Assembly (NCBI RefSeq): GCF_022701215.1
Contig: NZ_CP089976.1
Span: 660,001 to 692,000, forward strand
Length of the DNA: 32,000 nt
Direction: 5' to 3'
From: Moraxella nasovis
GTDB lineage: Bacteria; Pseudomonadota; Gammaproteobacteria; Pseudomonadales; Moraxellaceae
Shown piece by piece: positions 13,672-25,694 of this stretch. The translations under genes were made by a program, and so were the position numbers. The notes below the pieces were generated by a model. That model made no database searches and was not told the origin of the DNA. It saw only the letters and a program-made list of their open reading frames with translations. Positions within the stretch are counted from its first letter, which is position 1; the number at the start of each line of letters is the position of its first letter.

Positions 13672-13762
13672 GGTGACGTGGCTGAGTGGTTGAAAGCGCA
13701 CGCCTGGAAAGTGTGTATAGGTTAATAGCCTATCGAGAGTTCGAATCTCTCCGTCACCGCCA
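13672..13762 (+). tRNA. tRNA-Ser (anticodon GGA)
   Basis: GGTGACG...CGTCACC acceptor stem, anticodon loop CTGGAAA, long variable arm, GTTCGAATC T-loop and encoded CCA. Confidence 0.93.
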
Positions 13763-13785
13763 CATCAAACAGCCCCCATTTGATG

Positions 13786-13814
13786 CCCTAAATTATTTTT
13801 TTAGGGTTTTTTTG
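13786..13814 (+). terminator. rho-independent terminator after tRNA-Ser
   Basis: CCCTAAA-loop-TTTAGGG hairpin followed by TTTTTTT. Confidence 0.6.
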
Positions 13815-13885
13815 TTTTTAGGTTGGAAGCTTTAGCGGTCGTGTAAGAAAAATGTCATGAAAGTTCTAACCGTGTCATGCCTGTG

Positions 13886-14170
13886 CTAAACCGTGAGAAG
13901 ATTTGTAAAGTTGGCAGCTTCACCCGCTTTTACCAGATTGTTAATGCTTTGTACTTGGTCAACTAGGCTGTTTGACACACCCATCGTTAAACCTGTGGTT
14001 TTTTGGTGTTGGTGATTGTAGGTTTCTGTGGTGGCATTCATATTTTGGATGCTCGCTGATTTGGCGTTAATCACCACCGTGCCATGGGTTAGGTCATGCA
14101 CGTTGTCATTGCTTTGGTTACCTGCTGACACCACACTGCCTTTGATGAAGCCTGATTTTGTTTGGTGGTG
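13886..14170 (-). pseudogene. filamentous-hemagglutinin/CdiA repeat-region fragment (both ends missing)
   Basis: Open frame ...KSGFIKGSVVSAGNQSNDNVHDLTHGTVVINAKSASIQNMNATTETYNHQHQKTTGLTMGVSNSLVDQVQSINNLVKAGE. This is FHA-2-type repeat sequence with no credible start and only about 95 aa. Confidence 0.6.
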
Positions 14171-14326
14171 GTTTTTAAATCACAATTATAATAGGTGTCA
14201 TAATCTTCTTCTGATAAGAAGTAGAGTAAATCATCTTCTTACACTGTACAAATAAGGAAGAAAATCTCTTAATGTGTACATACTTGGTCATTACTATCTC
14301 CAATTTTTTTGATACATTTTAATAAA

Positions 14327-14719
14327 TTACTGTCTTGTTTTTTTGCCTTGATTTATGTTGAGATAAGTTCTACGACACTTACTTGCTTGAGACCAACCAA
14401 TTGAAATCATCACATCATTGGTAATGGCTTCTTCGTATATTACTAAATGATATTGGTTGTGGCAATAATTCATTCCATCTTTATTGTTATCAAGAAAAAC
14501 CCACTTTCTTTGACTTTCTATGTTTTTTATTAACTTTTCTTTTTGTTTATTATCTAAATTAATATATGTTATATAAACAGATACCACCTCTGGCTTTACT
14601 CTGTGATAGATTTTATCTGGACTTGGCAAATCTTTTATTACTTGATCTGTTAAGCCATATATATCATTTATTGATGGCATATCTTCTCTATCATCATAAT
14701 TTTTAAGACTAAACTTCAT
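14327..14719 (-). CDS. hypothetical protein, possible orphan immunity protein
   Basis: Track ORF 14327..14737. Preferred start is MKFSLKNYDD at 14719 with an AGGA RBS. It is very AT-rich and in the same orientation as the toxin array. It abuts the IS1016-like element, so its cognate toxin may have been displaced. No recognisable motif. Confidence 0.4.
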   Translation of the reverse strand: MKFSLKNYDDREDMPSINDIYGLTDQVIKDLPSPDKIYHRVKPEVVSVYITYINLDNKQKEKLIKNIESQRKWVFLDNNKDGMNYCHNQYHLVIYEEAITNDVMISIGWSQASKCRRTYLNINQGKKTRQ

Positions 14720-14737
14720 ATTTCCTGTTACGTACAT

Positions 14738-15477
14738 TAAAACAAAAGGGGCTGTACTAGATTAACTTTAAATTCCACACCATTTCCTAAGCACTTTAAG
14801 CTGATGAGAGGCGATCCATAGTTAAATCTAAACTTCCGTCTTTGATAAAAAGATGAATGTTTTTCTTGTCAATACCGTTGTATTTGCGTAGCACACGTTT
14901 GACTTGCGACCAGAAATTTTCAATGCCGTTAATGTGATTGTAAGCATTTTCTTGGTTAACAAACTCTTTTGAATGATTTATCCGAAAGTGTTTGAAGTCT
15001 GATACATCAAGAGCATTGTAACTTCGGTAGCTGTCTGTGTAAACTATGCTGTCAGGCTCGACTTTGCTTGTAATGATAGGCATGAGTGTGTCTGTTTTGG
15101 TGTCTTTAACAACAACAGTATAAACTTTACCATTTGCCTTAAAAGATCAAAGACAGCGGTTTTGCCACCTGCTCTGTGTCCACGTTTACCTTTAGAACAC
15201 CACCGAAATAACTTTCATCAAGCTCAACTTCTCCATCAAAGAGTGTTTGAGCTTCTAGGCTAAGATGGTATTGTATCACAGTTAAGATTTTATGATAAAA
15301 TAACGCTGCTTAAATTATGCTTAAATGCCTAACAAATTACTGGCTGTTCTAGCAGTAACTTGGGCGATGAAAAATTCAAGTAGTTTTAACTGAACTTTTT
15401 TAGTTAGTTTACAACGAGTTATCTTCATTTTTGTCGTATACCACATTGTGTAATCTACTACAGCCCCTATTGTTTTT
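14738..15477 (-). mobile_element. IS1016-like element (IS1595 family) with a decayed transposase gene
   Basis: Terminal inverted repeats AAAACAAAAGGGGCTGTACTAGATTA (left) versus AAAACAATAGGGGCTGTAGTAGATTA (reverse complement of the right end). The C-terminal transposase ORF 14796..15083 reads EPDSIVYTDSYRSYNALDVSDFKHFRINHS...HINGIENFWSQVKR. The N-terminal part (MKITRCKLTKKVQLKLLEFFIAQVTARTA...) is broken by stops and frameshifts. Ends are uncertain by about 10 bp. Confidence 0.8.
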
Positions 15478-15509
15478 CCAACGTACCCAATGATAGTTTG
15501 TATGGATTG

Positions 15510-16025
15510 TCATTTGGTAAATTTTCTGCTCTCTGCACTACCATCGTTCCCAATCTTTTGATACATACTCAAAATTTTAATCAATTCATCTTTGTATTCT
15601 TCGTTGTATGGAATAAAATATTTTTTATTGTTGCTTGATATGGATATTGCATCATAAGCATAATGCGAAATTATTTTGCTTAATAGTGTCATTTTTTTAA
15701 CTTCAATTACTTCAATATTGTTTAAATATTCATATTGAAATTTTGAAAATTTCAATGCCATTTTGCCATCAAGAAAAAATATTCCCACAACAGTTCTTTT
15801 TAAGAAAAATTTATATAAAATATTCTGCAAAATAAATAGAAATCCAACAACACAAAGAAATAAAGAAAAATATGTGTGAGAATTTGGCATGAGTTTAAAA
15901 AAAATATAAGATAAGCAAAGAAAAGCGAAAATTGTTGGCACCATTTCAAAATTCTTTTCATCTAAATATTTTTGATTAATGTATTTATTATATCTATCAT
16001 AATCTAAATTTTTAATTATATTCAT
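15510..16025 (-). CDS. two-TM membrane protein, putative (orphan) immunity protein
   Basis: 171 aa. Two hydrophobic helices (VPTIFAFLCLSYIFF, FSLFLCVVGFLFILQNIL) followed by a soluble tail. GAGGGAGG RBS. Same layout as the 16191..16691 product, including KYFIPYNEEYKDELIKILS versus IFFIPHSKADKNFISHLES. Confidence 0.55.
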   Translation of the reverse strand: MNIIKNLDYDRYNKYINQKYLDEKNFEMVPTIFAFLCLSYIFFKLMPNSHTYFSLFLCVVGFLFILQNILYKFFLKRTVVGIFFLDGKMALKFSKFQYEYLNNIEVIEVKKMTLLSKIISHYAYDAISISSNNKKYFIPYNEEYKDELIKILSMYQKIGNDGSAESRKFTK

Positions 16026-16190
16026 TCAATCCTCCCTCATTGGTAAGAAACACATATTCCATTCACTGTTTTTTTTGCAAGTTATTAATGGCGTAGTACG
16101 TTTTATGGTTGGTTTTTGTTGCCTTATATCATGTAGAATTGCCTGTTGTTGGGTCAATTTTAACAGTAACAACATTTGTATGATATTTTA

Positions 16191-16691
16191 TTATTTCGCA
16201 ACACTTTCCAAATGACTGATAAAATTCTTATCGGCTTTACTGTGTGGTATAAAAAAAATGCTATGTCCATTAGTTAATTTAATAAAGCTGACGGATAAAA
16301 TTGGATCTTTTTTGGTGATAATCCAATTCTTTTTTATAGAGTAATCCCAATCCAAGATGATGGGATTATCAATCATGATTTTTTGATTTAAAAAACCTTT
16401 TCCTTTTATCGTACTATCGACAATACTGATGGTTTTAAAAGACTTTCTGCCATAGTTTATAAGTAGCGCAATCTCTTCGATTGATACCACTGCCAACGAT
16501 ATTATTGGTGGCAGATAGTATGTTGAAATTTTTACTCCGAAAATTTGAACAGCCCATGCATTAGAAGTAAACACATAATAAGAAAAAAATAACATAAAAG
16601 CCAAACATAAGAATAATATAATGAAAGCTCTATTAACCCTATTTATAAAATTACTATCTATGACAAAATAATAAATATTACTTCGATTCAT
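16191..16691 (-). CDS. two-TM membrane protein, putative immunity protein for the VEDN orphan toxin
   Basis: 166 aa. The start lies 2 nt after the stop of the upstream toxin ORF. Two TM helices are followed by a soluble C-terminal domain. Very AT-rich. Confidence 0.65.
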   Translation of the reverse strand: MNRSNIYYFVIDSNFINRVNRAFIILFLCLAFMLFFSYYVFTSNAWAVQIFGVKISTYYLPPIISLAVVSIEEIALLINYGRKSFKTISIVDSTIKGKGFLNQKIMIDNPIILDWDYSIKKNWIITKKDPILSVSFIKLTNGHSIFFIPHSKADKNFISHLESVAK

Positions 16692-16693
16692 TT

Positions 16694-17687
16694 TTATTGT
16701 CCTTTTTTTTGTTTATCTATAGAAATGGTGTATTTTTTATATAGCTCATCCGAAATTTTTCCAAATGACGCATTAGGAGCCACAGTAATTGAGGTCTGAC
16801 ACAAATCACCACAATTGTAGTTACCAAGATACTTTCCTGCACCATAAGTAAACCCATTCACCACATGAGATGGCTTAACACTAAAATCATCGCCTTTGTT
16901 AGAAATAATTTGATTACTATATGCCGCTGCAACACCAACAGTAATTGCTTGTGTTGTATTTTTGGTCATATTTAACGCTCCCCCTCCAAGACCCCCTGTA
17001 ACAGTATTGGATATATAACCCAAAGCATTTCGTTCATTTTTAGGAGTGGTTGCATGGTAGCTTACAGCAGAAGTTGCAGAGCCTACTTTGACTGTTGTTG
17101 GAGTAACTGAAGCTGCTGCGAAGACATAAGGGGTATATCCAGCAGTAGTTGCAGCCAATCTATTGAACTTCATGATAGGCTTCATTGTTTCCGCTACTGA
17201 TTTCTGACTGCTACTCAAAAACGGAGTTATATGCTCAGGCATTACATAAAATAAAAATGGCAAATCCTTACTTTTAGCATTTGAATTTTTCTGTCTGGCA
17301 TCACTACAACCTTCTAAATTTGGGTTTCTTTGACAATGCTCAGCTTTAACAATTTGGTGATTGATGTCTGTTGTAGATATATTAAAGTTACTTGGTGTCC
17401 AACTAAATTGATTATCCTCCACCGCCACCTTAGCCACTTCACTTGCATTTACTGCTTCTGCCACATCACCTGTGGTGGTGTAGGTAGTAGCAACTGTACC
17501 TAGTCTTATGATGCTTGTGATGGTGTCTTTTTGTTCTTGAGTGAGCTTACTAGGTTGGTTTTTGTCATATAAGATTTTGGATAAGGCAGGGGCGACTTTT
17601 TCACTGGTTGCTCCACTGAATGCTCCTAGTGCTACATTATTACCTGTCGCATAGCTTGTGGTAGCTCCTAGTAGGGCATGGGATAAT
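16694..17687 (-). CDS. orphan CdiA-CT module (pretoxin homology, VEDN motif, unique 238-aa C-terminal domain)
   Basis: The frame opens at 17687 with LSHALLGATTSYATGNNV...LTQEQKDTITSI...GDVAEAVNASEVAKVAVEDN (VEDN at 17411-17422). The first ATG is at 17464, which is the track ORF 16694..17464. The pretoxin part is homologous to the 18236..19264 product. The tail is unrelated to it. Confidence 0.75.
17643..17686. repeat. 44-bp repeat copy (pretoxin homology block) with a sharp homology breakpoint at 17686/17687
   Basis: CCTGTCGCATAGCTTGTGG(T/C)AGCTCCTAGTAGGGCATGGGATAA is shared with 19056-19099 (1 mismatch). The flanks diverge immediately on the upstream (gene 5') side. Confidence 0.85.
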
Positions 17688-17732
17688 TAGTGCCTTGTAA
17701 AAATATATAATCACGTTGTGGTACGAGTTGAT

Positions 17733-18239
17733 TTATTCTAATGCTTTGGCGTAAGATGCCAAATCTTGCAAAGCTCGTGGATTTTTACCGCCCCACCAGT
17801 GTTTACGGCATTCACTTCTAGGACTCCAAAATACATGTATGCCAAAAAATTCTCGTTCATCTATCTTAAATTCAACATACATACCATCTTTCAAGCAAAA
17901 TATTTTTTTCTCATCCACTTCAAGCACAACAAATTTTTTGTCTGCAATGATTTTAATCATGACATTTTCAGATTTATCATAGGCAAAATATCTTGAAAAG
18001 TAATAATGGTCGGCTTTTCTAAAATAATCTTCATCTAAATAGGATCTGTCAAAATCTGTCAATTCATCAACAACTTGAGCCATTTTCTCTTTATTTGGCA
18101 AATCATAGTATTTCCATTGATACAAATAAGGATTCGCCTTTTCAAAACTTTTGTCGTACAATTTATAAAAATACAGCCCAAATAAAGCGGTGCTTATTAT
18201 ACCACCTACGATAAGTATGATTTTATTGAGTAGATTCAT
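17733..18239 (-). CDS. N-terminally membrane-anchored protein, putative immunity protein for the VENN orphan toxin
   Basis: Track ORF 17733..18350. The real start is most likely MNLLNKIILIVGGIISTALFGLYFY at 18239, whose ATG overlaps the toxin TGA stop (ATGA). One TM helix plus a soluble domain. Confidence 0.7.
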   Translation of the reverse strand: MNLLNKIILIVGGIISTALFGLYFYKLYDKSFEKANPYLYQWKYYDLPNKEKMAQVVDELTDFDRSYLDEDYFRKADHYYFSRYFAYDKSENVMIKIIADKKFVVLEVDEKKIFCLKDGMYVEFKIDEREFFGIHVFWSPRSECRKHWWGGKNPRALQDLASYAKALE

Positions 18240-19264
18240 TTTAAAACACCTAAGTCTTTTAAGATCTTCTTCTCGGTATCTGTCAGCTGTCGCATCACAG
18301 TGCCACCAACACCAACTTGGGTAGTACCTACACCTGTTGCCACAGTCCAATACCCTTCCTTCCCTTCACCTCTAGATACACTCAAACAAGCATAATGACA
18401 ACCTTGCAAACCAAGAGATCTACCTCCAATCGCCTGATCCACTTTTGCCTCGCTACTACCCGCACCAATAACTGTTCCAACCTGAACAGAAATCCCCAAA
18501 GAAACAGGTTTTTTGAAGCCTTTAGCTTTAATATCGTCTTGGATTCTATTTACATAATCTTTTGGATTTATGGTAATTCCATATCCAGCTTGGTATTCAT
18601 CTGATTTAGGCATTCCACCAATCCAAACATTGCCATTTCTATTGTTTACAACAATGGTATATGAAAACACACCAGCACTTACCGAATATATTGTTAAATC
18701 ATGATATTTATCAGCGTATTCCCCAAAGATGTCACCAAGGGTTCTTACCTCGCAAGCATTAACATCCCCATTCCTGCACGCACGAGCATTTAAGGCTCTA
18801 CCTTTTTGCATATAGTTTGCACCTCCATTATTCTCCACCGCCACTTTCCCAACTTCACTTGCATTCACCGCTTCTGCCACATCGCCAGTCGTCGCACCAA
18901 CTCCAAGTCCTGCAAGGCTTGCAATACTACTTACCGTCTGTTTTTGTTCTGTGGTTAGCTTACTTGTGTCAGAAGTGCCAAATAGATATTGAGATAAAGG
19001 TTTGGCAGTAGCCTCAGCACCCATCGCAGACAACGCTCCAGTCGTTGGGTCGTTGCCTGTCGCATAGCTTGTGGCAGCTCCTAGTAGGGCATGGGATAAA
19101 ATGTGTGGGGCAGTACCTTCGGTGTTGTTTTGTTTAAAGTGTTGTCCGATTTGATAGGAAAGTTCTGGGCTTAATACTCTGGATATGTCGCCTGTGATGC
19201 CGTTGCCGTTAGGTGCATATAGGGCGGATGTGATGCCATAAAATAGGCGTAGGTTGTTCATCAT
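18236..19264 (-). CDS. orphan CdiA-CT module (about 145-aa pretoxin region, VENN motif, unique 196-aa C-terminal domain)
   Basis: 342 aa. ...ELSYQIGQHFKQNNTEGTAPHILSHALLGAATSYATGN...LTTEQKQTVSSIASLAGLGVGATTGDVAEAVNASEVGKVAVENN (VENN at 18827-18838), then an unrelated tail GGANYMQKGRALNARACRNGD... Confidence 0.8.
   Translation of the reverse strand: MMNNLRLFYGITSALYAPNGNGITGDISRVLSPELSYQIGQHFKQNNTEGTAPHILSHALLGAATSYATGNDPTTGALSAMGAEATAKPLSQYLFGTSDTSKLTTEQKQTVSSIASLAGLGVGATTGDVAEAVNASEVGKVAVENNGGANYMQKGRALNARACRNGDVNACEVRTLGDIFGEYADKYHDLTIYSVSAGVFSYTIVVNNRNGNVWIGGMPKSDEYQAGYGITINPKDYVNRIQDDIKAKGFKKPVSLGISVQVGTVIGAGSSEAKVDQAIGGRSLGLQGCHYACLSVSRGEGKEGYWTVATGVGTTQVGVGGTVMRQLTDTEKKILKDLGVLK
19056..19099. 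repeat. 44-bp repeat copy (partner of 17643-17686)
   Basis: Same 44-bp block. Here the homology to cdiA-type sequence continues upstream. Confidence 0.85.
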
Positions 19265-19270
19265 AAAAAT

Positions 19271-19717
19271 TTAGCTTCTTTGATTCTTGGTTAAATAGAA
19301 CAGTAAAGCCATAAAAAGCAGAGTTGATGGTATTGATACCAAAAAATAATATAACATTTCATCCATAATATCATGAGAATTTGTATTGTAGAAATGAAAA
19401 CTGGGAAACTTTAAAATCATAAAACCATAAATTATTATCAATAAAAATGATATCAAATTTTTTAATGATTTATTCCTTACCCACCACTGAATAAAACATA
19501 CAAGCAACAAGACTGGGGAAAAAAATATAGTGGCAATAAAATCAAGGAAAAACGGTGCCATTGCTATTATCTTAATTGATTCAATAAAGCTAGGAGCGAT
19601 GCCATCTCCTCCAATCTCTATAGATATTACCAGTATCAAAAAAATAAAGTAAGATACAATATAAAATGATAAAAAAACCAAAAATAGTGTCTTAAAAAAT
19701 AAAGCCTCCGTTCTCAT
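19271..19717 (-). CDS. polytopic membrane protein, putative immunity protein for the truncated cdiA toxin
   Basis: 148 aa, almost entirely hydrophobic helices (4-5 predicted by eye). AAGGG RBS. Very AT-rich. It is the first sizeable ORF downstream of the 19956 toxin stop. Confidence 0.55.
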   Translation of the reverse strand: MRTEALFFKTLFLVFLSFYIVSYFIFLILVISIEIGGDGIAPSFIESIKIIAMAPFFLDFIATIFFSPVLLLVCFIQWWVRNKSLKNLISFLLIIIYGFMILKFPSFHFYNTNSHDIMDEMLYYFLVSIPSTLLFMALLFYLTKNQRS

Positions 19718-19754
19718 GGCTTATACCCTTGTTCTTAAATGCTAATCCGCCCCA

Positions 19755-19871
19755 TTATACACCCATACCCATCTTGAAAACTATGTATGCACCATATAGC
19801 AAATATAATATTAGGAAAACTAACGATGTAATTGTCATAAAGAATATCATGTTGTACAACTTTTTATCCAT
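19755..19871 (-). CDS. possible 38-aa hydrophobic peptide
   Basis: MDKKLYNMIFFMTITSLVFLILYLLYGAYIVFKMGMGV lies between the toxin stop and the 19717 start. The RBS is weak and the ORF is below the track cutoff. Confidence 0.2.
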   Translation of the reverse strand: MDKKLYNMIFFMTITSLVFLILYLLYGAYIVFKMGMGV

Positions 19872-19955
19872 CAATGATTTTTATACCTTTGCACAGCGAT
19901 GAATATTAATATATAAAAGAGAATATAGCTACGATAAAAAGTAGATAACTATTCA

Positions 19956-21842
19956 CTATTTCTTCTCCTTTTCAAAGCTATCTAATGCTTTATCAACTAT
20001 ATTTTGGGTCGCATTGTTAGCAATACTTCCTTTCACCTCTAGAATAGGTGGCAACTCTCCAAAAATAACTTTACTTGGCATTGAGCCAATCTGTCTAATT
20101 GGCACATTTCGTCTACTTTCTAATGAAGTTATATCTCCCTTTCCACTACCAAAGTCAATATAGGGATCTACGTCATAATCCTTATGTCCGATTTTTTCAG
20201 TTCTGGGAGCGTAATAATTGTAGCTACCGGCATTTGTTGGATTATTGACTATTCTGCTATAATCATCAGGACTTAATATTCCATCTTTAGTATCGATCAC
20301 TATTTCTAACCGTCCATTATTATGAACAAATTTCTTATAACGATAATGTCCATTAGGTAATTTATTTGGAATACCATTTGCATCAAAATTATGAAAAATA
20401 TTTTCTTCATCAAGCATTGGTTTCCAATTATTCATGTTGCCATTCGTATTATCTTGTAAAAATAAACTATTTGCCTCAGCATTCCATCGTTGTCTTTGAG
20501 TCACATGCAAATAATAGAATTGTTGACAACCTTTGCCAGCACGACAATTATCATACGCTGCATTAAAATCCTTATCTCTTTTTTCACCAAGATTGTCAAA
20601 CTCTTTTATTTGGTAATCAAGTCTATCAAGTTTTGACTTACAATCAGAGTCAATCAAACAACTAAGTCTAGTTGAATACCTGCTAAGAAGTCTTTGTTTT
20701 TCCTGTTGCAACTTAGCTAATTTGGCATTCTCAATATGATTCAAATAATTATTCTCCGTCTGATTAACGCTATTGGCCACACTTGCGGTGTTATCGCCAA
20801 TAGCACCACCAATACCTGCTGATAGTGTAAGTAAGACTGTATCTCGAGTTTGTTTATCATAACCTTGTTGTTCTAGGTATTTATCAACTTTTGGAATAAC
20901 AATCGCTGTTCCACCGCCTGCAACTGTCCCTTCAATTGAACCTGTGGCTAAAGCACTAGATAATGTATGAAGTGCGACACGGTAGATACCGCCCTCTGCC
21001 CATTTTTCGGCTTCATCAATATTACCTTTGTTGATTAGCTCAAGCTATTTATTACTTGCATAATCCCCAATCGCTTTTGGCATTTCTTTACCATATTCTT
21101 GGGTGATGGCTATCTGAGCATCAATCTCTTGATTGACCCTATCCTTATCAAAGTTATTGACCAGTGTTTCATTGAGTGTACTTACATTATTGGTGGTTAT
21201 CTCAAACTTACCTGCCATACCTGTTACTGCACCATAGGTGGTGGAAGTTTGGTTGTCGCCGTCTTTGCCATAACCTATGCCACTGATTTTAGGTTTTTGA
21301 CCTGCTTTGGTAGAAATACCGACATTAATGTCATCGGCTTTATAATTGCTGTGGTTTTGAATATCGCTGACTTGTAAACCACCATTAAACTGGGTTTGAT
21401 TATCTTTTTGGGTAGCTGTGGTAAAGTAAGCTCCTTTGAATGTGCTTTTACCATGGACAATAACATCAGACTTTTGGTAGGCAAATCCTGTTTGTTCGGT
21501 TACTGCTTTATAATCGGCATTTGCTTTGGTGCGACCACCATTGACTGCAATACTTGAGCCTGCACCTTGTTTGGCTAAATCGATATCCACATTAAAACCA
21601 GCACTGCTTTGTCTGCCCTCATAGGTTTTGGTATCTTGACGGCTGGTGGCATGAATACCTCCGCTGATATGCCCTGTCATGTGCTTGCCTTTTTCTATGG
21701 CACCATCTAGGATATAATCACCACCCACATTTTGATAAGTCGTTCCTGCTACTGTGATGTGGCTGTTAGTATTAGTGATGGTGGTGGTTCTTCCATGTCC
21801 TTTTGCCATAGATTTCAAAATGATGGAAATGGTAATTTTCAT
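19956..21842 (-). pseudogene. cdiA: 5'-truncated cdiA/FHA-family exoprotein 3' end with its own CT toxin, interrupted by an in-frame TAG
   Basis: ORFs 21045..21842 and 19956..20780 are in the same frame. The read-through is ...NNFDKDRVNQEIDAQIAITQEYGKEMPKAIGDYASNK*LELINKGNIDEAEKWAEGGIYRVALHTLSSALATGS...ASVANSVNQTENNYLN (TAG at 21045-21047, TENN at 20748-20759). The upstream part is FHA-2-like (TTTITNTNSHITVAGTTYQNVGGDYILDG...). FHA-like sequence stops near 21800-21812. Confidence 0.8.
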
Positions 21843-21929
21843 TGGAATGGCTCTACTAATGGAAAAACATCAAAAGGAGAATCAAGATCTATTAAAATCA
21901 CAGATGTCCCCAATGAATTAAAAAGGTAG
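21806..21929 (+). pseudogene. 3' tail of an unidentified toxin gene (remnant)
   Basis: The plus frame ...RFQNDGNGNFHWNGSTNGKTSKGESRSIKITDVPNELKR* ends 6 nt before the next ORF start. Sequence upstream of about 21806 is antisense to the cdiA fragment, so only a tail survives. Confidence 0.35.
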
Positions 21930-21935
21930 TTAAAT

Positions 21936-22397
21936 ATGAAGTTAATAGGAAATAAAGATATTTATCTTGAAGTAGATATTGTTACATATTGTAATAATAT
22001 GGCTCATCTTGTTCTGATAATAGGTAATACAAGAATTGGAACATTGGATTCTCCAACTTATATTCCTAGCTTTATCGCTTCATTAGAAAGTTTATTATTG
22101 GAAAATGTTTATTTTTATGAGAATATGAATATTGATGTATTTACCAAAATGGCATTGGGTGGTGAATTAGAAAATAAAAATGCGTTTACTTTAGAAGATA
22201 CATTCGATGATTTTATGAAGCGATGTATTAGAAGTAAAGACAATTTATATTTTTATTTTAAACTATACACAGATCATTTTTTTGAATATAAAAATATCGA
22301 TGTTAATGTGCCTATTATTAAAATAATTAGTGTAAAAAACTTTGATTTATTTTTAAGTGATATCAAATATTTTTTTAATAATATTAATATGTATTAA
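21936..22397 (+). CDS. hypothetical protein, putative immunity protein
   Basis: 153 aa, soluble and very AT-rich. It starts 6 nt after the toxin-tail stop. No recognisable motif. Confidence 0.5.
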   Translation: MKLIGNKDIYLEVDIVTYCNNMAHLVLIIGNTRIGTLDSPTYIPSFIASLESLLLENVYFYENMNIDVFTKMALGGELENKNAFTLEDTFDDFMKRCIRSKDNLYFYFKLYTDHFFEYKNIDVNVPIIKIISVKNFDLFLSDIKYFFNNINMY

Positions 22398-22810
22398 TCA
22401 ACACTACCTATAACTTTGAAGTACAAGACCTCCACACCTACCATATCGGTAAGTATGGAGTGTGGGTGCATAATGATTGTTGGAATAATCTCCCAAATGG
22501 TGCAGTAGCAACAGGAAAAACTACGATTGATGGACGAAAACTTTATACTTTTAAAGACGATAAAGACAAACAAGTTACAGTTTATCAGGGTTCTGATGGT
22601 CGTTAGTACGATCCCAAACTTCATTCCCCAACTCAGCCTACTGCTACTGGGGTTAAGGCTGTTGATTACATACCATCATTACATGAGTACAACCAAAAAG
22701 TTAATGGTCCTGGTTTGTCAAGAGATAAGAAAATTTCATATATCAAAGACACATTATCTAAGATCGCTCAACGAAATGGATGGATTAAGGATAATACTCT
22801 ATCCAAATAA
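22388..22810 (+). pseudogene. PT-HINT C-terminal remnant plus toxin domain, with an in-frame TAG
   Basis: Plus-strand frame with codons starting at 22388, 22391 and so on: YVLINTTYNFEVQDLHTYHIGKYGVWVHNDCWNNLPNG...VTVYQGSDGR*YDPKLHSPTQPTATG...IAQRNGWIKDNTLSK*. YNFEVxDxHTYxxGxxGVWVHN is the classic Hint/PT-HINT C-terminal block. TAG at 22604-22606. There is no start codon, and the 5' end overlaps the preceding stop. Confidence 0.7.
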
Positions 22811-22827
22811 ATGACTTTATACTAACA

Positions 22828-23250
22828 GTGGCCTGGAAAAGCCTTCCCTATCAGAAATATATACCCGGAATGGGGAATTATGATATTAAAGAAGCTCATG
22901 GAAATGGAACCACTTATGCGGATGGGACTAGAAAGGCTTATGATGGATATTTATTTCATGGGAAATATGTAACTTTAAGAGAAGGTGGAAATATTCTAGC
23001 AGGGATGAATGCTGCTACTTTAGGTATACCTTATGAGGATTTTCAAAAGGCTAGTGGTGCATTGCATGTTGGTGGTATAGCTGGATTAATGAATCATTTA
23101 ACTACAGGTAAAGTTTATGGTAATTACCCCAGATATGGCGAAATAGATTACCAATACCTAAGAAGTAGGTATGGATATAATTTAGGAATAAAAAGGATAG
23201 AATGCAATATTGATAATGCAAAACTTGGTTCTGATTGCCAAACAAAATAA
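22828..23250 (+). CDS. stand-alone toxin domain, toxin-44 (Ntox44)-like
   Basis: 140 aa from a GTG. LREGGNILAGMNAATLGIPYEDFQKASGALH...YGEIDYQYLRSRYGYNLG resembles my recollection of the GN..AG..AA..G / GE..YQ...GY..G pattern of polymorphic toxin type 44. No delivery or pretoxin region. The family assignment needs an HMM search. Confidence 0.45.
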   Translation: MAWKSLPYQKYIPGMGNYDIKEAHGNGTTYADGTRKAYDGYLFHGKYVTLREGGNILAGMNAATLGIPYEDFQKASGALHVGGIAGLMNHLTTGKVYGNYPRYGEIDYQYLRSRYGYNLGIKRIECNIDNAKLGSDCQTK

Positions 23251-23260
23251 GGAGCTATTA

Positions 23261-23671
23261 ATGAGTTTTTTTAGATATATAATAATATTTTATTTTAAAA
23301 TAATTATTTTATTGTTGTCTTTAATTATTTTATTATATCTATTTATAGCAAAAGAAAAAGCATATTATTATTGTGATGATATTTGTATAACTATAATACA
23401 ACATAATGCAGGTAGAGATACTTTTTTTAGAGTGTATGATGGTATTTTGTTGAGTAGGTACGCTTATCTTATTTATTCTTATGCTGAATATCCAAATGAA
23501 ACATACATATATATAAAAAACAAGAAAATTGATGGAAAGATAATTGTAGAAAACTTTACCATGCCAGTTAAATATAAAGGAAAACTAAATAACGCAAACT
23601 TTTATTTATCATCTTATGAGAGTAGCGAAATAAAATTCACAGAGTTAAAATATTTATATTTATTCTTCTAA
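23261..23671 (+). CDS. membrane-anchored protein, putative immunity protein
   Basis: The ATG at 23261 lies 6 nt after an AAGGAG that overlaps the toxin stop. MSFFRYIIIFYFKIIILLLSLIILLYLFIA is a TM anchor, followed by a soluble domain. Extremely AT-rich. Confidence 0.6.
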   Translation: MSFFRYIIIFYFKIIILLLSLIILLYLFIAKEKAYYYCDDICITIIQHNAGRDTFFRVYDGILLSRYAYLIYSYAEYPNETYIYIKNKKIDGKIIVENFTMPVKYKGKLNNANFYLSSYESSEIKFTELKYLYLFF

Positions 23672-23701
23672 TACCTCATTCTCAACTTGTATGATAGATA
23701 A

Positions 23702-24261
23702 GCCTCAAAGCATGATGGTAGGGGTATTTTTTTATCAAACAGTCTTGCTCAAACGTCGTTGCCAACTCAATGGCACACTGCCTTTTCTTCTCTTGTGTCT
23801 AAGGCTGGTGTCACACTCATCGCCAACATCGCCCATAAGCTTAGTGCAGGATTAACAGGCTGTCTGTCTGCCAAAGTCAAAGATAGTTCTTGCAAAGCTG
23901 GGGCAGTTGGCTCTATCATAGGAGAGATGGTAGGCGATTGGATGACCAATGGACATAAGATCACCCTGCCTAATGGCGGTGGTTAATAATGCTGTCAATA
24001 AAGAATTGGTTGGGATGGCAGAAGATTTTGAAGGCTTGCTAAACAGCTCTATACGTAAAGTTGGATTACTTCGTGGTGATGACGCACATGCCTACCTTTT
24101 ATCCTTGAATGAAAAAAATTTGATGTTGGAGCCAACGCAAACGGGCTACTTCAATAATAAAAAATCTAGATATATTTACACAGAACAGGGTGGATGGATA
24201 GATATGGTTCATTTCTTGTTTTACGCTAGTGAAGCATATAACTATAAAATGCAAATGATAA
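23702..24261 (+). pseudogene. orphan toxin module, 5' part (pretoxin fragment, frameshift, toxin domain) cut by IS982
   Basis: The frame opening at 23702 reads ...NSLAQTSLPTQWHTAFSSLVSKAGVTLIANIAHKLSAGLTGCLSAKVKDSSCKAGAVGSIIGEMVGDWM, the Cys-x-Cys / GxxVGExVG pretoxin pattern of CdiA/MafB-type proteins. It shifts frame near 23975 into VVNNAVNKELVGMAEDF...GGWIDMVHFLFYASEAYNYKMQMI. Confidence 0.6.
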
Positions 24262-25241
24262 ACCCCACTCTCAACTTAAAATCATCTCAAATTGTAGTGG
24301 CGGATTACCAAGTTGTTTATTAATCTGCACACAAAAAGTATGAGCAAGTAGCTTTCTAACAAAACGACAAGACAAGTGGTATATGTCTTTTGCTTTTACC
24401 TTTTGTATGTTAAACCTATCTGACAGTTGAGAGATGGTAGTCTCTATGGTCTTTTTTTTCTTTTTAAGGTAAGACAAAAAGCCCTTATCTTTATCATCTG
24501 TCATATTATCCCTAAGGGGAGTTTGCAAATCAATGGCATATCTTTTTAACCCATCTTGTCAATCTTTGGATAAACAACCCTTATCACCAAACACCTGACC
24601 TTGTAGGTTATCTGTTAGCTCAAATACCACTTGTCTGTCATCTACGTTTGCCCCTGTTAGCGTGTAGCTTATCACTTGTCCTTGTGTGTTGGTCAGTAGA
24701 TGTGCCTTAAAGCCAAAGTAATGCTCATCTTGACTGGCACAGTAGCCAAAAGCAACCATGCCATTAAAGTTCTTGTGTCGTCTTGCTCTACCATAGCGAC
24801 ATACAGATATAGGAAAGCTATCTATCAAATCAGGCGATGAGTTTTGACTGGCTTTATTTTGTATGGCAAGTGCATTCATCATCTTGTTTGTTACCCAATA
24901 CAAATTGGCACAGTGTTTGGCAAAGTTGGGGTATGAGCCAATTTTGGGAAAGTGGTGTGTGTAGTGGTTTTTAAAGTAAGACCACATTTGCCTGTCTGTA
25001 TCTACACCTAAACACTCTGCCACAATCTGCATAGTAATCACTTCACTATCAGACAAGGCAGGGGGAAAGCCACGAGTTCTGATAGGAGTTGTTACAATAC
25101 TTTTATATAAAACATCTACCATAAGGCACACGGTAATGATAAAATCATCATAAGACATAACTTGCTCCGTTTTTGTGCTAAAAATAGGATTGGGTTATGT
25201 CTTTTTTATTTTAAGGTTGTTGGGAAAGTTGAGATTGGGGT
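24262..25241 (-). mobile_element. IS982-family insertion sequence (980 bp)
   Basis: Inverted repeats ACCCCACTCTCAACTT (24262-24277) and ACCCCAATCTCAACTT (reverse complement of 25226-25241). They are flanked by a 3-bp direct repeat TAA (24259-24261 and 25242-25244). Confidence 0.85.
24271..25158 (-). pseudogene. IS982-family transposase with an in-frame TGA
   Basis: ORFs 24559..25158 and 24271..24528 share one frame: ...QVFGDKGCLSKD*QDGLKRYAIDLQTPLRDNMTDDKDKG...IETTISQL... TGA at 24559-24561. The family is recognised from the GDKGY-like, DLxTPxR and IETxxSQL motifs. Confidence 0.8.
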
Positions 25242-25244
25242 TAA

Positions 25245-25555
25245 AACAAGATTTTAGCTACTGCCCATCTTGGCTTAATCCCAAACAAACCCACAAAACC
25301 AAACATCATCACAGTATCTATTTAGGAATGGATGCTGGCTTTGTGAAAAACAAAAATCACGAACAAGATAAACTACTACTTGGTCATAGCCTAGTTGGCG
25401 CTGCTATAGGCATTAAAGGACAAATCACCCCAACTACCAATCATCCTTACGCCAGTTTCAACTATGGCCTGTTCACCGCCAAAGCCATTCATGAGCCAAA
25501 TCATTTCTCAGATAAAGATTGGGTGAGTGGATTTAGTGTTGGTATGGGGTTTTAG
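25245..25555 (+). pseudogene. orphan toxin module, 3' part downstream of the IS982 insertion
   Basis: Deleting the IS and one TAA copy joins ...YNYKMQMI to KQDFSYCPSWLNPKQTH...SGFSVGMGF* in frame. Track ORF 25175..25555 starts artificially inside the IS. Confidence 0.55.
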
Positions 25556-25694
25556 GGAATAAGCAAAGATTGAAAATCAAAGCAAGATGTATGGGCTTAG
25601 TTTGTTATTGTGGGTTGAAAAGACTATAAAAATGGCTTATTAGCCAAAGCTTGATTTATCTTAGCTTGACTATTTAGATTAACCGTCAATAAAC

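Follow-up and report, generated by a model that had tools for sequence, protein, structure and literature searches.

The toxin tips used in contact-dependent growth inhibition (CDI) form a large reservoir of unexplored antibacterial activities, and to our knowledge nearly all of those characterised are cytoplasmic nucleases or helical ionophores. Here we analyse a CDI-type module in a 32,000-nt stretch of Moraxella nasovis DNA (contig NZ_CP089976.1 of assembly GCF_022701215.1, positions 660,001 to 692,000; called the window below, with coordinates counted from its first nucleotide), in which a toxin fragment at 18236..19264 on the minus strand runs into a gene for a putative membrane-anchored immunity protein at 17733..18239. 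Orphan cdiA-CT/cdiI modules are known to occur downstream of cdiBAI loci (Poole et al. 2011, PMC3150448). In CDI, the CdiA-CT is released in the target periplasm, and toxins that act in the cytoplasm require an N-terminal entry domain (PMC9424206). The CDI ionophore toxins of the EC93 type, groups 1–6, act on the inner membrane from the periplasm; they are predicted to be five-helix bundles, their N-terminal entry domains hijack AcrB, SecY, YciB, PuuP or DtpA, and they are neutralised by polymorphic, membrane-embedded CdiI proteins (Halvorsen et al. 2024, PMC11630599). The colicin M immunity protein, Cmi, consists of an N-terminal membrane anchor and a periplasmic domain (PMC4661593). The Vap proteins of Rhodococcus equi are 8-stranded barrels in which a single helix separates strands 4 and 5; lipid or detergent tails bind to a ‘bald’ face rich in glycine, and Asn/Gln amides form a conserved cluster (PMC4118825). 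The strands form an antiparallel barrel of two Greek keys. One of these proteins, VapA, binds liposomes, makes them permeable and collapses proton gradients (PMC10100859).

As judged from its sequence, the open reading frame (ORF) at 18236..19264 is an orphan C-terminal fragment of a CdiA protein rather than the tip of an intact one. The explanation that best covers all our results, which we hold at somewhat less than even confidence, is that the window carries an orphan module of a rare, Vap-like CDI toxin family that acts on the envelope or its membrane. The features of the module are as follows.

18236..19264, minus strand: orphan cdiA-CT ORF of 342 aa, with a pre-toxin homology region, VENN and a 196-aa tail (from the ORF listing)
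18827..18964, minus strand: PT-VENN domain, ORF aa 101–146 (Pfam PF04829, E 5.2e-10, above the gathering score)
18827–18838, minus strand: VENN codons, in a motif that reads VAVENN
18725..18826, minus strand: VENN-proximal linker, tail aa 1–34, with the Cys-loop CRNGDVNAC, outside the family core
18239..18724, minus strand: toxin core domain, tail aa 35–196, a predicted 8-strand Gly-rich beta-barrel with a C-terminal helix (family alignment A3, AlphaFold2, Foldseek)
18386..18400, minus strand: invariant CxxxC, tail C143-H-Y-A-C147, codons tgt cat tat gct tgt (family alignment)
18247..18251, minus strand: Shine–Dalgarno (SD)-like AGGTG, 7 nt 5′ of the immunity ATG and within the toxin 3′ end (sequence reading)
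17733..18239, minus strand: putative immunity gene, 168 aa, ATGA-coupled to the toxin (overlap reading and synteny of homologues)
18165..18221, minus strand: predicted N-terminal transmembrane (TM) helix, immunity aa 7–25 (Kyte–Doolittle 19-mer mean 2.12)
17808..17897, minus strand: soluble immunity region from Cys115 (17895–17897) to Cys144 (17808–17810), including Trp138 (alignment A7)

The first-pass annotation of this DNA had placed a 196-aa tail after VENN and had its stop codon overlap the start of the next gene, and both statements are borne out by direct reading. The post-VENN tail (GGANYMQ...GVLK) is exactly 196 codons and a stop at 18236..18826, behind a PT-VENN domain recognised at E 5.2e-10, and the toxin TGA (18236–18238) shares bases with the immunity ATG (18237–18239) in aaATGAat. 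The 342-aa ORF aligns end to end, at 59% identity, with residues 2152–2494 of a 2494-aa CdiA (P0011), and because it matches only the last 342 residues of that protein we assign the pair of genes to the orphan cdiA-CT/cdiI type. Pfam finds neither a TPS nor an ESPR domain in the ORF. Its ATG (19264) begins 6 nt past the stop of the upstream gene and has no clear SD sequence ahead of it.

A word-indexed homologue search with the tail returned eight relatives, at up to E 1e-73; six cover the full tail at 58–59% identity, two are truncated fragments, and all those with a source name are from Moraxella (M. catarrhalis, M. nonliquefaciens, M. bovoculi and M. cuniculi). With a 5-sequence profile, HMMER found 38 clusters at E ≤ 1e-3 among 1.84 billion representatives, and a scan of GTDB representative genomes with the narrower alignment A6 gave three loci, newly adding Psychrobacter sp. 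and Moraxella oculi; the named sources of the family are Moraxella and Psychrobacter. The tail also forms the end of three full-length CdiA proteins. P0011 (locus L013) has TPS, ESPR and haemagglutinin repeats and adjoins a divergent ShlB/POTRA (CdiB) gene; P0018 (L005, 2279 aa) has ESPR, TPS, DUF637 and PT-VENN, with a divergent cdiB (ShlB) neighbour; P0022 (L014, 2238 aa), from a Moraxella-group genome, has only a weak Fil_haemagg_2 match and a ShlB neighbour. When 10 further members were scanned against Pfam, eight had any match, all eight to PT-VENN and two of the eight also to DUF637; P0042 and P0040 had no family match. Because of the full-length carriers and the PT-VENN domain in 8/8 members with any match, the toxin domain appears to be specific to CDI. 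The sequence observations go beyond chance: the tail has homologues at E 1e-73 and 38 profile matches, and a homologous downstream ORF recurs.

The conserved core begins at about tail residue 35, the profile matches of distant members starting at ∼30–40, and the spacing from VENN to the core is only ∼27–65 residues and varies among members. The 34-aa Cys-loop linker (GGAN..CRNGDVNAC..) that fills this space in the window is portable: in P0040 the domain behind it is an unrelated C-terminal one, and in P0031 it stands ahead of a divergent member of the family; candidate roles for it are a processing site, a periplasmic disulfide loop or a mini entry element. Antisense to the core lies a 95-aa ORF with a TTG start (18317–18604, plus strand), whose Cys/Ser/Thr-rich sequence has low complexity; most likely it is a spurious shadow ORF.

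The gene at 17733..18239 had been described as encoding one N-terminal TM helix and a soluble domain, and the Kyte–Doolittle profile agrees, with a single hydrophobic 19-mer (aa 7–25) and nothing else above the threshold. An alternative, longer form starts at a TTG at 18350 in the ORF listing; we take the ATG at 18239 as the real start because all homologues begin MN(L/R)L at the overlap. Pfam and NCBIfam scans, which took in the tail, the immunity protein and seven neighbouring ORFs, gave no match for the immunity protein, nor did the PDB. The word-indexed search with this protein returned the query alone, and its homologues came from synteny. Those that are 40–45% identical to it share the exact 10-residue string WWGGKNPRAL, yet the search missed them, and its lack of matches is therefore no evidence that the protein is unique.

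A homologous ORF stands directly after the toxin in nine further loci, intact in seven and truncated or split in two. The immunity homologue follows the toxin in M. nonliquefaciens (L001/L002), M. cuniculi (L003), M. lacunata (L006/L007), Psychrobacter sp. (L011) and M. oculi (L012), and in the two metagenomic loci with a full-length CdiA (L005 and L013). Intact homologues are 157–183 aa long and overlap the toxin stop by 4 nt or 1 nt. Relative to the window proteins, toxins that are 59% identical come with immunity proteins at 40–45%, and toxins at ∼30–36% with immunity proteins at 17–23%; by these identities, toxin and immunity co-diverge in the usual toxin/immunity pattern. The pairing put forward in the first-pass annotation is thus well founded in the PT-VENN boundary, in the presence of the tail on three full-length CdiA proteins and in a conserved, co-varying, overlapping ORF, and the tail and 17733..18239 are very probably, as predicted from their sequences, a CDI toxin/immunity pair.

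Two copies of the immunity gene are broken. That of L004 (10001–11308 in M. catarrhalis NXCW01000016) is cut to 42 aa at a plasmid-type junction with a KfrA-like gene; the toxin fragment, which has no intact antidote, lies there among conjugation-type genes (VirB8, CagX, TrbI, KfrA). In L014 (10714–11168 in CP011376), the immunity gene of the 2238-aa CdiA carrier is split into two ORFs of 78 aa and 63 aa, maybe by a frameshift or a sequencing error.

To characterise the activity of the tail, we turned to its conservation and to distant homology. Searches of Pfam, NCBIfam and the PDB sequences gave no match for the tail or for any other family member, with all 28 aligned members scanned against Pfam; PDB sequence searches with single sequences and with profiles, for toxin and immunity protein alike, gave only noise (E ≥ 0.02). 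Across the 28 members the invariant residues are I133, C143, C147, G165 and G167, both cysteines being kept in 28/28, and the positions conserved at ≥75% are mainly Gly, Asn, Gln, Ser and Thr, with the recurring motifs YxD[ML]TI, NNKNG, SxNFGS, IDxxIxGSSxGxQxCxxxCxG and TYGxGTxQxG. Among the His, Lys, Arg and Glu residues of the family, none is conserved. The first-pass statement that no catalytic motif can be assigned to the tail is upheld by this, and profile and structure searches for homology to a characterised toxin/immunity pair found none. In the immunity family (alignment A7), none of whose members has a Pfam or PDB match, only M1, T61, C115, W138 and C144 are invariant, so that cysteines make up half of the four invariant positions in the soluble domain, and one N-terminal hydrophobic helix is present in 7/7 intact homologues. 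We infer that the cysteine pairs form disulfides, and the compartment in which both domains work would therefore be an oxidising one. A helix placed at the extreme N-terminus takes the N-in/C-out orientation by default, from which the immunity domain would face the periplasm; the earlier placement of immunity at the membrane or its periplasmic face is supported indirectly by the helix in all seven intact homologues and by the invariance of C115 and C144. Together these features suggest that the toxin probably acts in the envelope.

The same envelope evidence would be shared by a periplasmic enzyme or tight binder that acts on an envelope component, spares the bilayer and is blocked by an anchored periplasmic immunity protein, as colicin M is by Cmi. 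Lipid II or undecaprenyl carriers, peptidoglycan, phospholipid head groups or an envelope assembly machine would be candidate targets, and the immunity architecture is like that of the ColM/Cmi pair (PMC4661593). The GxSxG-like G135-x-S137-x-G139, with the conserved D43, D130, N61, N62 and N64, could form an unconventional active site, and one of the 28 members has a weak Pfam match to Colicin_M (E 0.024). However, a single such match is at chance level for 28 scans; S137 is Ala in two members, D130 is Asn in four and G139 varies, with no conserved His; and there are no Pfam or NCBIfam enzyme matches and no ColM-type protein, lysozyme, amidase or lipase among the 50 Foldseek matches listed. 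We regard an enzyme or binder of this kind as rather unlikely.

Two specific identities were considered and rejected. For colicin M itself, hhalign gave a probability of 0.1% (the comparison sequence matches PDB 2xmx over its full length, E 7.8e-184), and no ColM, pectocin or PaeM fold is among the 50 Foldseek matches listed. A GxSxG serine lipase or esterase of the Tle-like kind was dropped because the Ser and its flanking Gly vary, no His is conserved and there is no Pfam match to a hydrolase.

The preferred explanation, a Vap-like toxin of the envelope, draws on structure prediction. A first AlphaFold2 model, made from the 5-sequence alignment, had a predicted local distance difference test score (pLDDT) of 47 and was discarded as unusable. 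With the 28-sequence alignment the mean pLDDT is 76, reaching ∼90 over tail residues 41–70 and 111–190; it is low over a variable insert (71–110) that is missing from several family members. Three short helices precede the core in this model, and if each of its two long strand segments is a hairpin, four strands come first, then a conserved helix (126–133), four further strands and a C-terminal helix (tail aa 183–191). On the hairpin reading, C143 and C147 would lie on either side of the turn in the first hairpin that follows the conserved helix, and a disulfide between them would staple that turn. When the model was compared with the PDB by Foldseek, the top five matches were R. equi VapG, VapD and VapB, with E values from 2.6e-4 to 3.5e-3, a probability of 1.0 and target-normalised template modelling (TM) scores of 0.55–0.66; of the 50 PDB matches listed, those after the top five are noise (TM score ∼0.15). 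A Foldseek comparison with viral structures gave nothing credible. We also rejected a five-helix CDI ionophore as the identity of the tail, since the core of the model is beta-strand and has no hydrophobic helices. Our literature search found no paper that ties the Vap fold to polymorphic toxins.

Several points weigh against a Vap-like membrane toxin. The query-normalised TM scores of the Vap matches are only 0.37–0.41, and the likeness comes from one predicted model built on 28 sequences. By hhalign, the family and an alignment of six Vaps (built from pVAPA1037) gave a probability of 0.1%, no Vap family match in Pfam was found among the 28 members, and the run of Gly followed by Trp at the Vap C-terminus is absent from the toxin family, which ends in a helix with no conserved Trp. 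Because of the negative hhalign result and the absent Gly-run and Trp, we claim for the predicted core a resemblance to Vap at the level of the fold only, and no family membership. A beta-barrel CDI membrane toxin would also be of an unprecedented type, because the CDI membrane toxins known so far combine a five-helix bundle with an entry domain. The charge bias that flanks the TM helix of the immunity protein leaves its topology undecided, and the local copy of the module, which has a decayed island around it, may be inert. The toxicity, the disulfides, the topology and the binding are all predictions from sequence and model.

The ambiguous charges around the TM helix would also suit an enzyme that acts in the cytoplasm, such as a new nuclease or tRNase able to cross the inner membrane, with an immunity protein that is merely tethered and has its domain in the cytoplasm. 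Several characterised CdiA-CT toxins are cytoplasmic nucleases (PMC3585180), and the three short helices that precede the core might act as a minimal element for entry. However, VENN and the core are only ∼27–65 aa apart, a distance that varies between members, acid/base or metal-binding residues are not conserved, the Foldseek matches listed include no nuclease-like fold, and the invariant cysteine pairs in both partners suggest disulfides and so an oxidising compartment. An enzyme of the cytoplasm is, in our view, very improbable.

For the toxin as a Vap-like barrel of the envelope, we propose the following course. In strains with a full-length carrier, CdiB would export CdiA, and contact with a target would deliver the post-VENN region into the target periplasm; periplasmic delivery is established for E. 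coli CDI and, by analogy, would hold for the Moraxella-group family. The ∼160-aa core would be a non-enzymatic, glycine-rich, Vap-like beta-barrel held by the CxxxC disulfide, which, with no large domain for entry into the cytoplasm, would most likely stay in the envelope. There it would damage the inner membrane from the periplasmic side, through permeabilisation and collapse of the proton gradient; by analogy with the Vap fold, such permeabilisation is possible, though open to real doubt. The immunity protein would be bitopic in the inner membrane (N-in, C-out), and its periplasmic domain, held by a disulfide, would bind the toxin at the surface of the membrane; the ATGA overlap would couple its translation to that of the toxin. 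A wider reading, in which the Vap-type barrel is a general proton-leak or membrane-perturbing module that is also used between bacteria, and the family provides the first non-enzymatic beta-barrel CDI membrane toxin with an anchored periplasmic inhibitor, is on present evidence unlikely.

The module is set in a low-GC island (13672–25600): the 14–25.6 kb stretch has 32–39% GC, compared with 42–44% in the flanks. Besides the toxin-like genes, the island includes the following features.

13672–13762: tRNA-Ser(GGA), adjoining the start of the low-GC CDI island
13925–14095: CdiA relic (tblastn)
14796–15083: IS1595-type transposase fragment
21045..21842, minus strand: truncated CdiA body fragment, 265 aa, at the head of the orphan array (Fil_haemagg_2 E 1.6e-10; tblastn)
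24559–25158: DDE_Tnp_1_3 transposase fragment
25175–25555, plus strand: weak ShlB/CdiB C-terminal remnant

By tblastn, the fragment at 21045–21842 is 41% identical to about aa 1862–2120 of P0011. The window contains no TPS domain, no long cdiA ORF and no intact cdiA or cdiB, and within it the module is not downstream of an intact cdiBAI locus; only CdiA fragments and the weak ShlB remnant are there. An Rfam scan found two tRNAs only, and the promoter and terminator scan did not rise above the shuffled expectation. The toxin is probably not deployed from this locus, since it lacks both a TPS/FHA region for delivery and a clear ribosome-binding site.

The minus strand holds, at ∼16.2–20.8 kb, an array of three toxin-like tails, and behind each of them comes a gene for a small membrane protein. 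Upstream of the module described here, 19271–20780 (minus strand) holds a 274-aa ORF (19956–20780) with a ‘TENN’ variant motif, whose tail has no Pfam or NCBIfam match, followed by a 148-aa polytopic membrane protein (19271–19717); it is probably a further uncharacterised toxin/immunity pair. Downstream, 16191–17695 (minus strand) holds a 256-aa ORF (16694–17464) with a ‘VEDN’ motif and then a 166-aa membrane protein (16191–16691), neither of which has a family match. The 256-aa ORF is probably interrupted, because, upstream of the called start, its pre-toxin homology continues as far as 17695. The array ends with 15510–16025 (minus strand, 171 aa, with hydrophobic segments) and 14327–14737 (minus strand, 136 aa); neither has a family match, and both may be immunity genes that stand alone. 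On the opposite strand, small ORFs at 21936–22397, 22828–23250, 23210–23671 and 23949–24323 have no convincing family matches; 22828–23250 has a weak match to Tox-REase-2 (E 0.053) and 23210–23671 has a hydrophobic N-terminus. This plus-strand cluster (21936–24323) may be toxin/immunity debris in the opposite orientation.

This setting bears on whether the M. nasovis copy does anything at all. Both genes might be an inert relic, neither expressed nor functional, whose frames are intact only because the island has decayed recently. That the window keeps only CdiA fragments (21045–21842 and 13925–14095), the weak ShlB remnant and insertion sequence (IS) fragments would fit such decay, as would the lack of an SD sequence at the toxin ATG, the promoter-like scan at shuffled expectation and the broken immunity genes of related copies (42 aa in L004, split in L014). 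However, both ORFs are full length and show no frameshift relative to the functional-looking L013 pair, all the family-invariant residues are kept in both proteins, the ATGA overlap and the SD-like site of the immunity gene are intact, and orphan immunity genes are known to stay useful (PMC3150448). We therefore consider an inert relic improbable. More plausibly, the window toxin fragment, which without its TPS/FHA part and a clear ribosome-binding site would not be exportable, would belong to a module with two uses, as a reservoir for recombination by way of its 146-aa arm of CdiA homology and as stand-alone immunity against neighbours that carry the same toxin.

The orphan CDI module is a well-known type of locus; the toxin and immunity families in this one are rare, unannotated in Pfam and NCBIfam and without a solved relative. 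The lack of a catalytic signature, the conserved putative disulfide motifs, the predicted bitopic immunity protein and the Vap-like predicted fold point to an envelope-directed mode of killing. If this is true, it would widen the range of mechanisms of contact-dependent competition in the Moraxella/Psychrobacter group, which includes commensals and pathogens of the respiratory tract and the eye. A Vap-like membrane mechanism, if confirmed, would make a new mechanistic class of CDI toxin, and the pair would offer a genetically tractable toxin and antidote for studying membrane disturbance by the Vap fold, including that of the R. equi virulence factor VapA. Should the mechanism prove conventional, the pair would be one more polymorphic toxin/immunity family, and the local copy a non-deployed orphan.

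We finally compared the locus with the systems closest to it. Like the orphan cdiA-CT/cdiI modules (PMC3150448), it has a CdiA C-terminal fragment with pre-toxin homology and VENN, followed by a small immunity gene, and it stands in a tandem array of different modules with a toxin that lacks its delivery region; in contrast to them, its ‘parent’ cdiA is fragmented, the window has no intact cdiB and the families are uncharacterised. The R. equi Vaps (VapA, B, D and G; PDB 4csb, 4cv7, 5aeo and 7b1z) are the only credible structural neighbours of the predicted core among the PDB matches listed. Like them, the core is predicted to be a small barrel, in which a helix would come after the fourth strand if the long strands of the model are hairpins; glycine dominates the conserved positions of both families, Asn/Gln residues are conserved in each, and neither has catalytic residues. 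Unlike the Vaps, which are secreted or surface proteins of an actinomycete and act on host membranes, the toxin family has the invariant CxxxC, the variable insert and the C-terminal helix, is fused to CdiA in a Gram-negative host and is paired with an immunity gene. With the CDI ionophores the family shares the proposed physiological outcome, whereas it is predicted to be beta-rich and has a short linker, and its immunity protein is a single N-terminal helix with a 140-aa soluble domain. The colicin M/Cmi system differs in the toxin, since neither hhalign nor the 50 Foldseek matches listed show sequence or fold similarity of the family to ColM, and a search of the PDB with the immunity profile found no Cmi structure; what the two systems have in common is the architecture of the immunity protein and, as proposed here, a toxin that acts in the periplasm.

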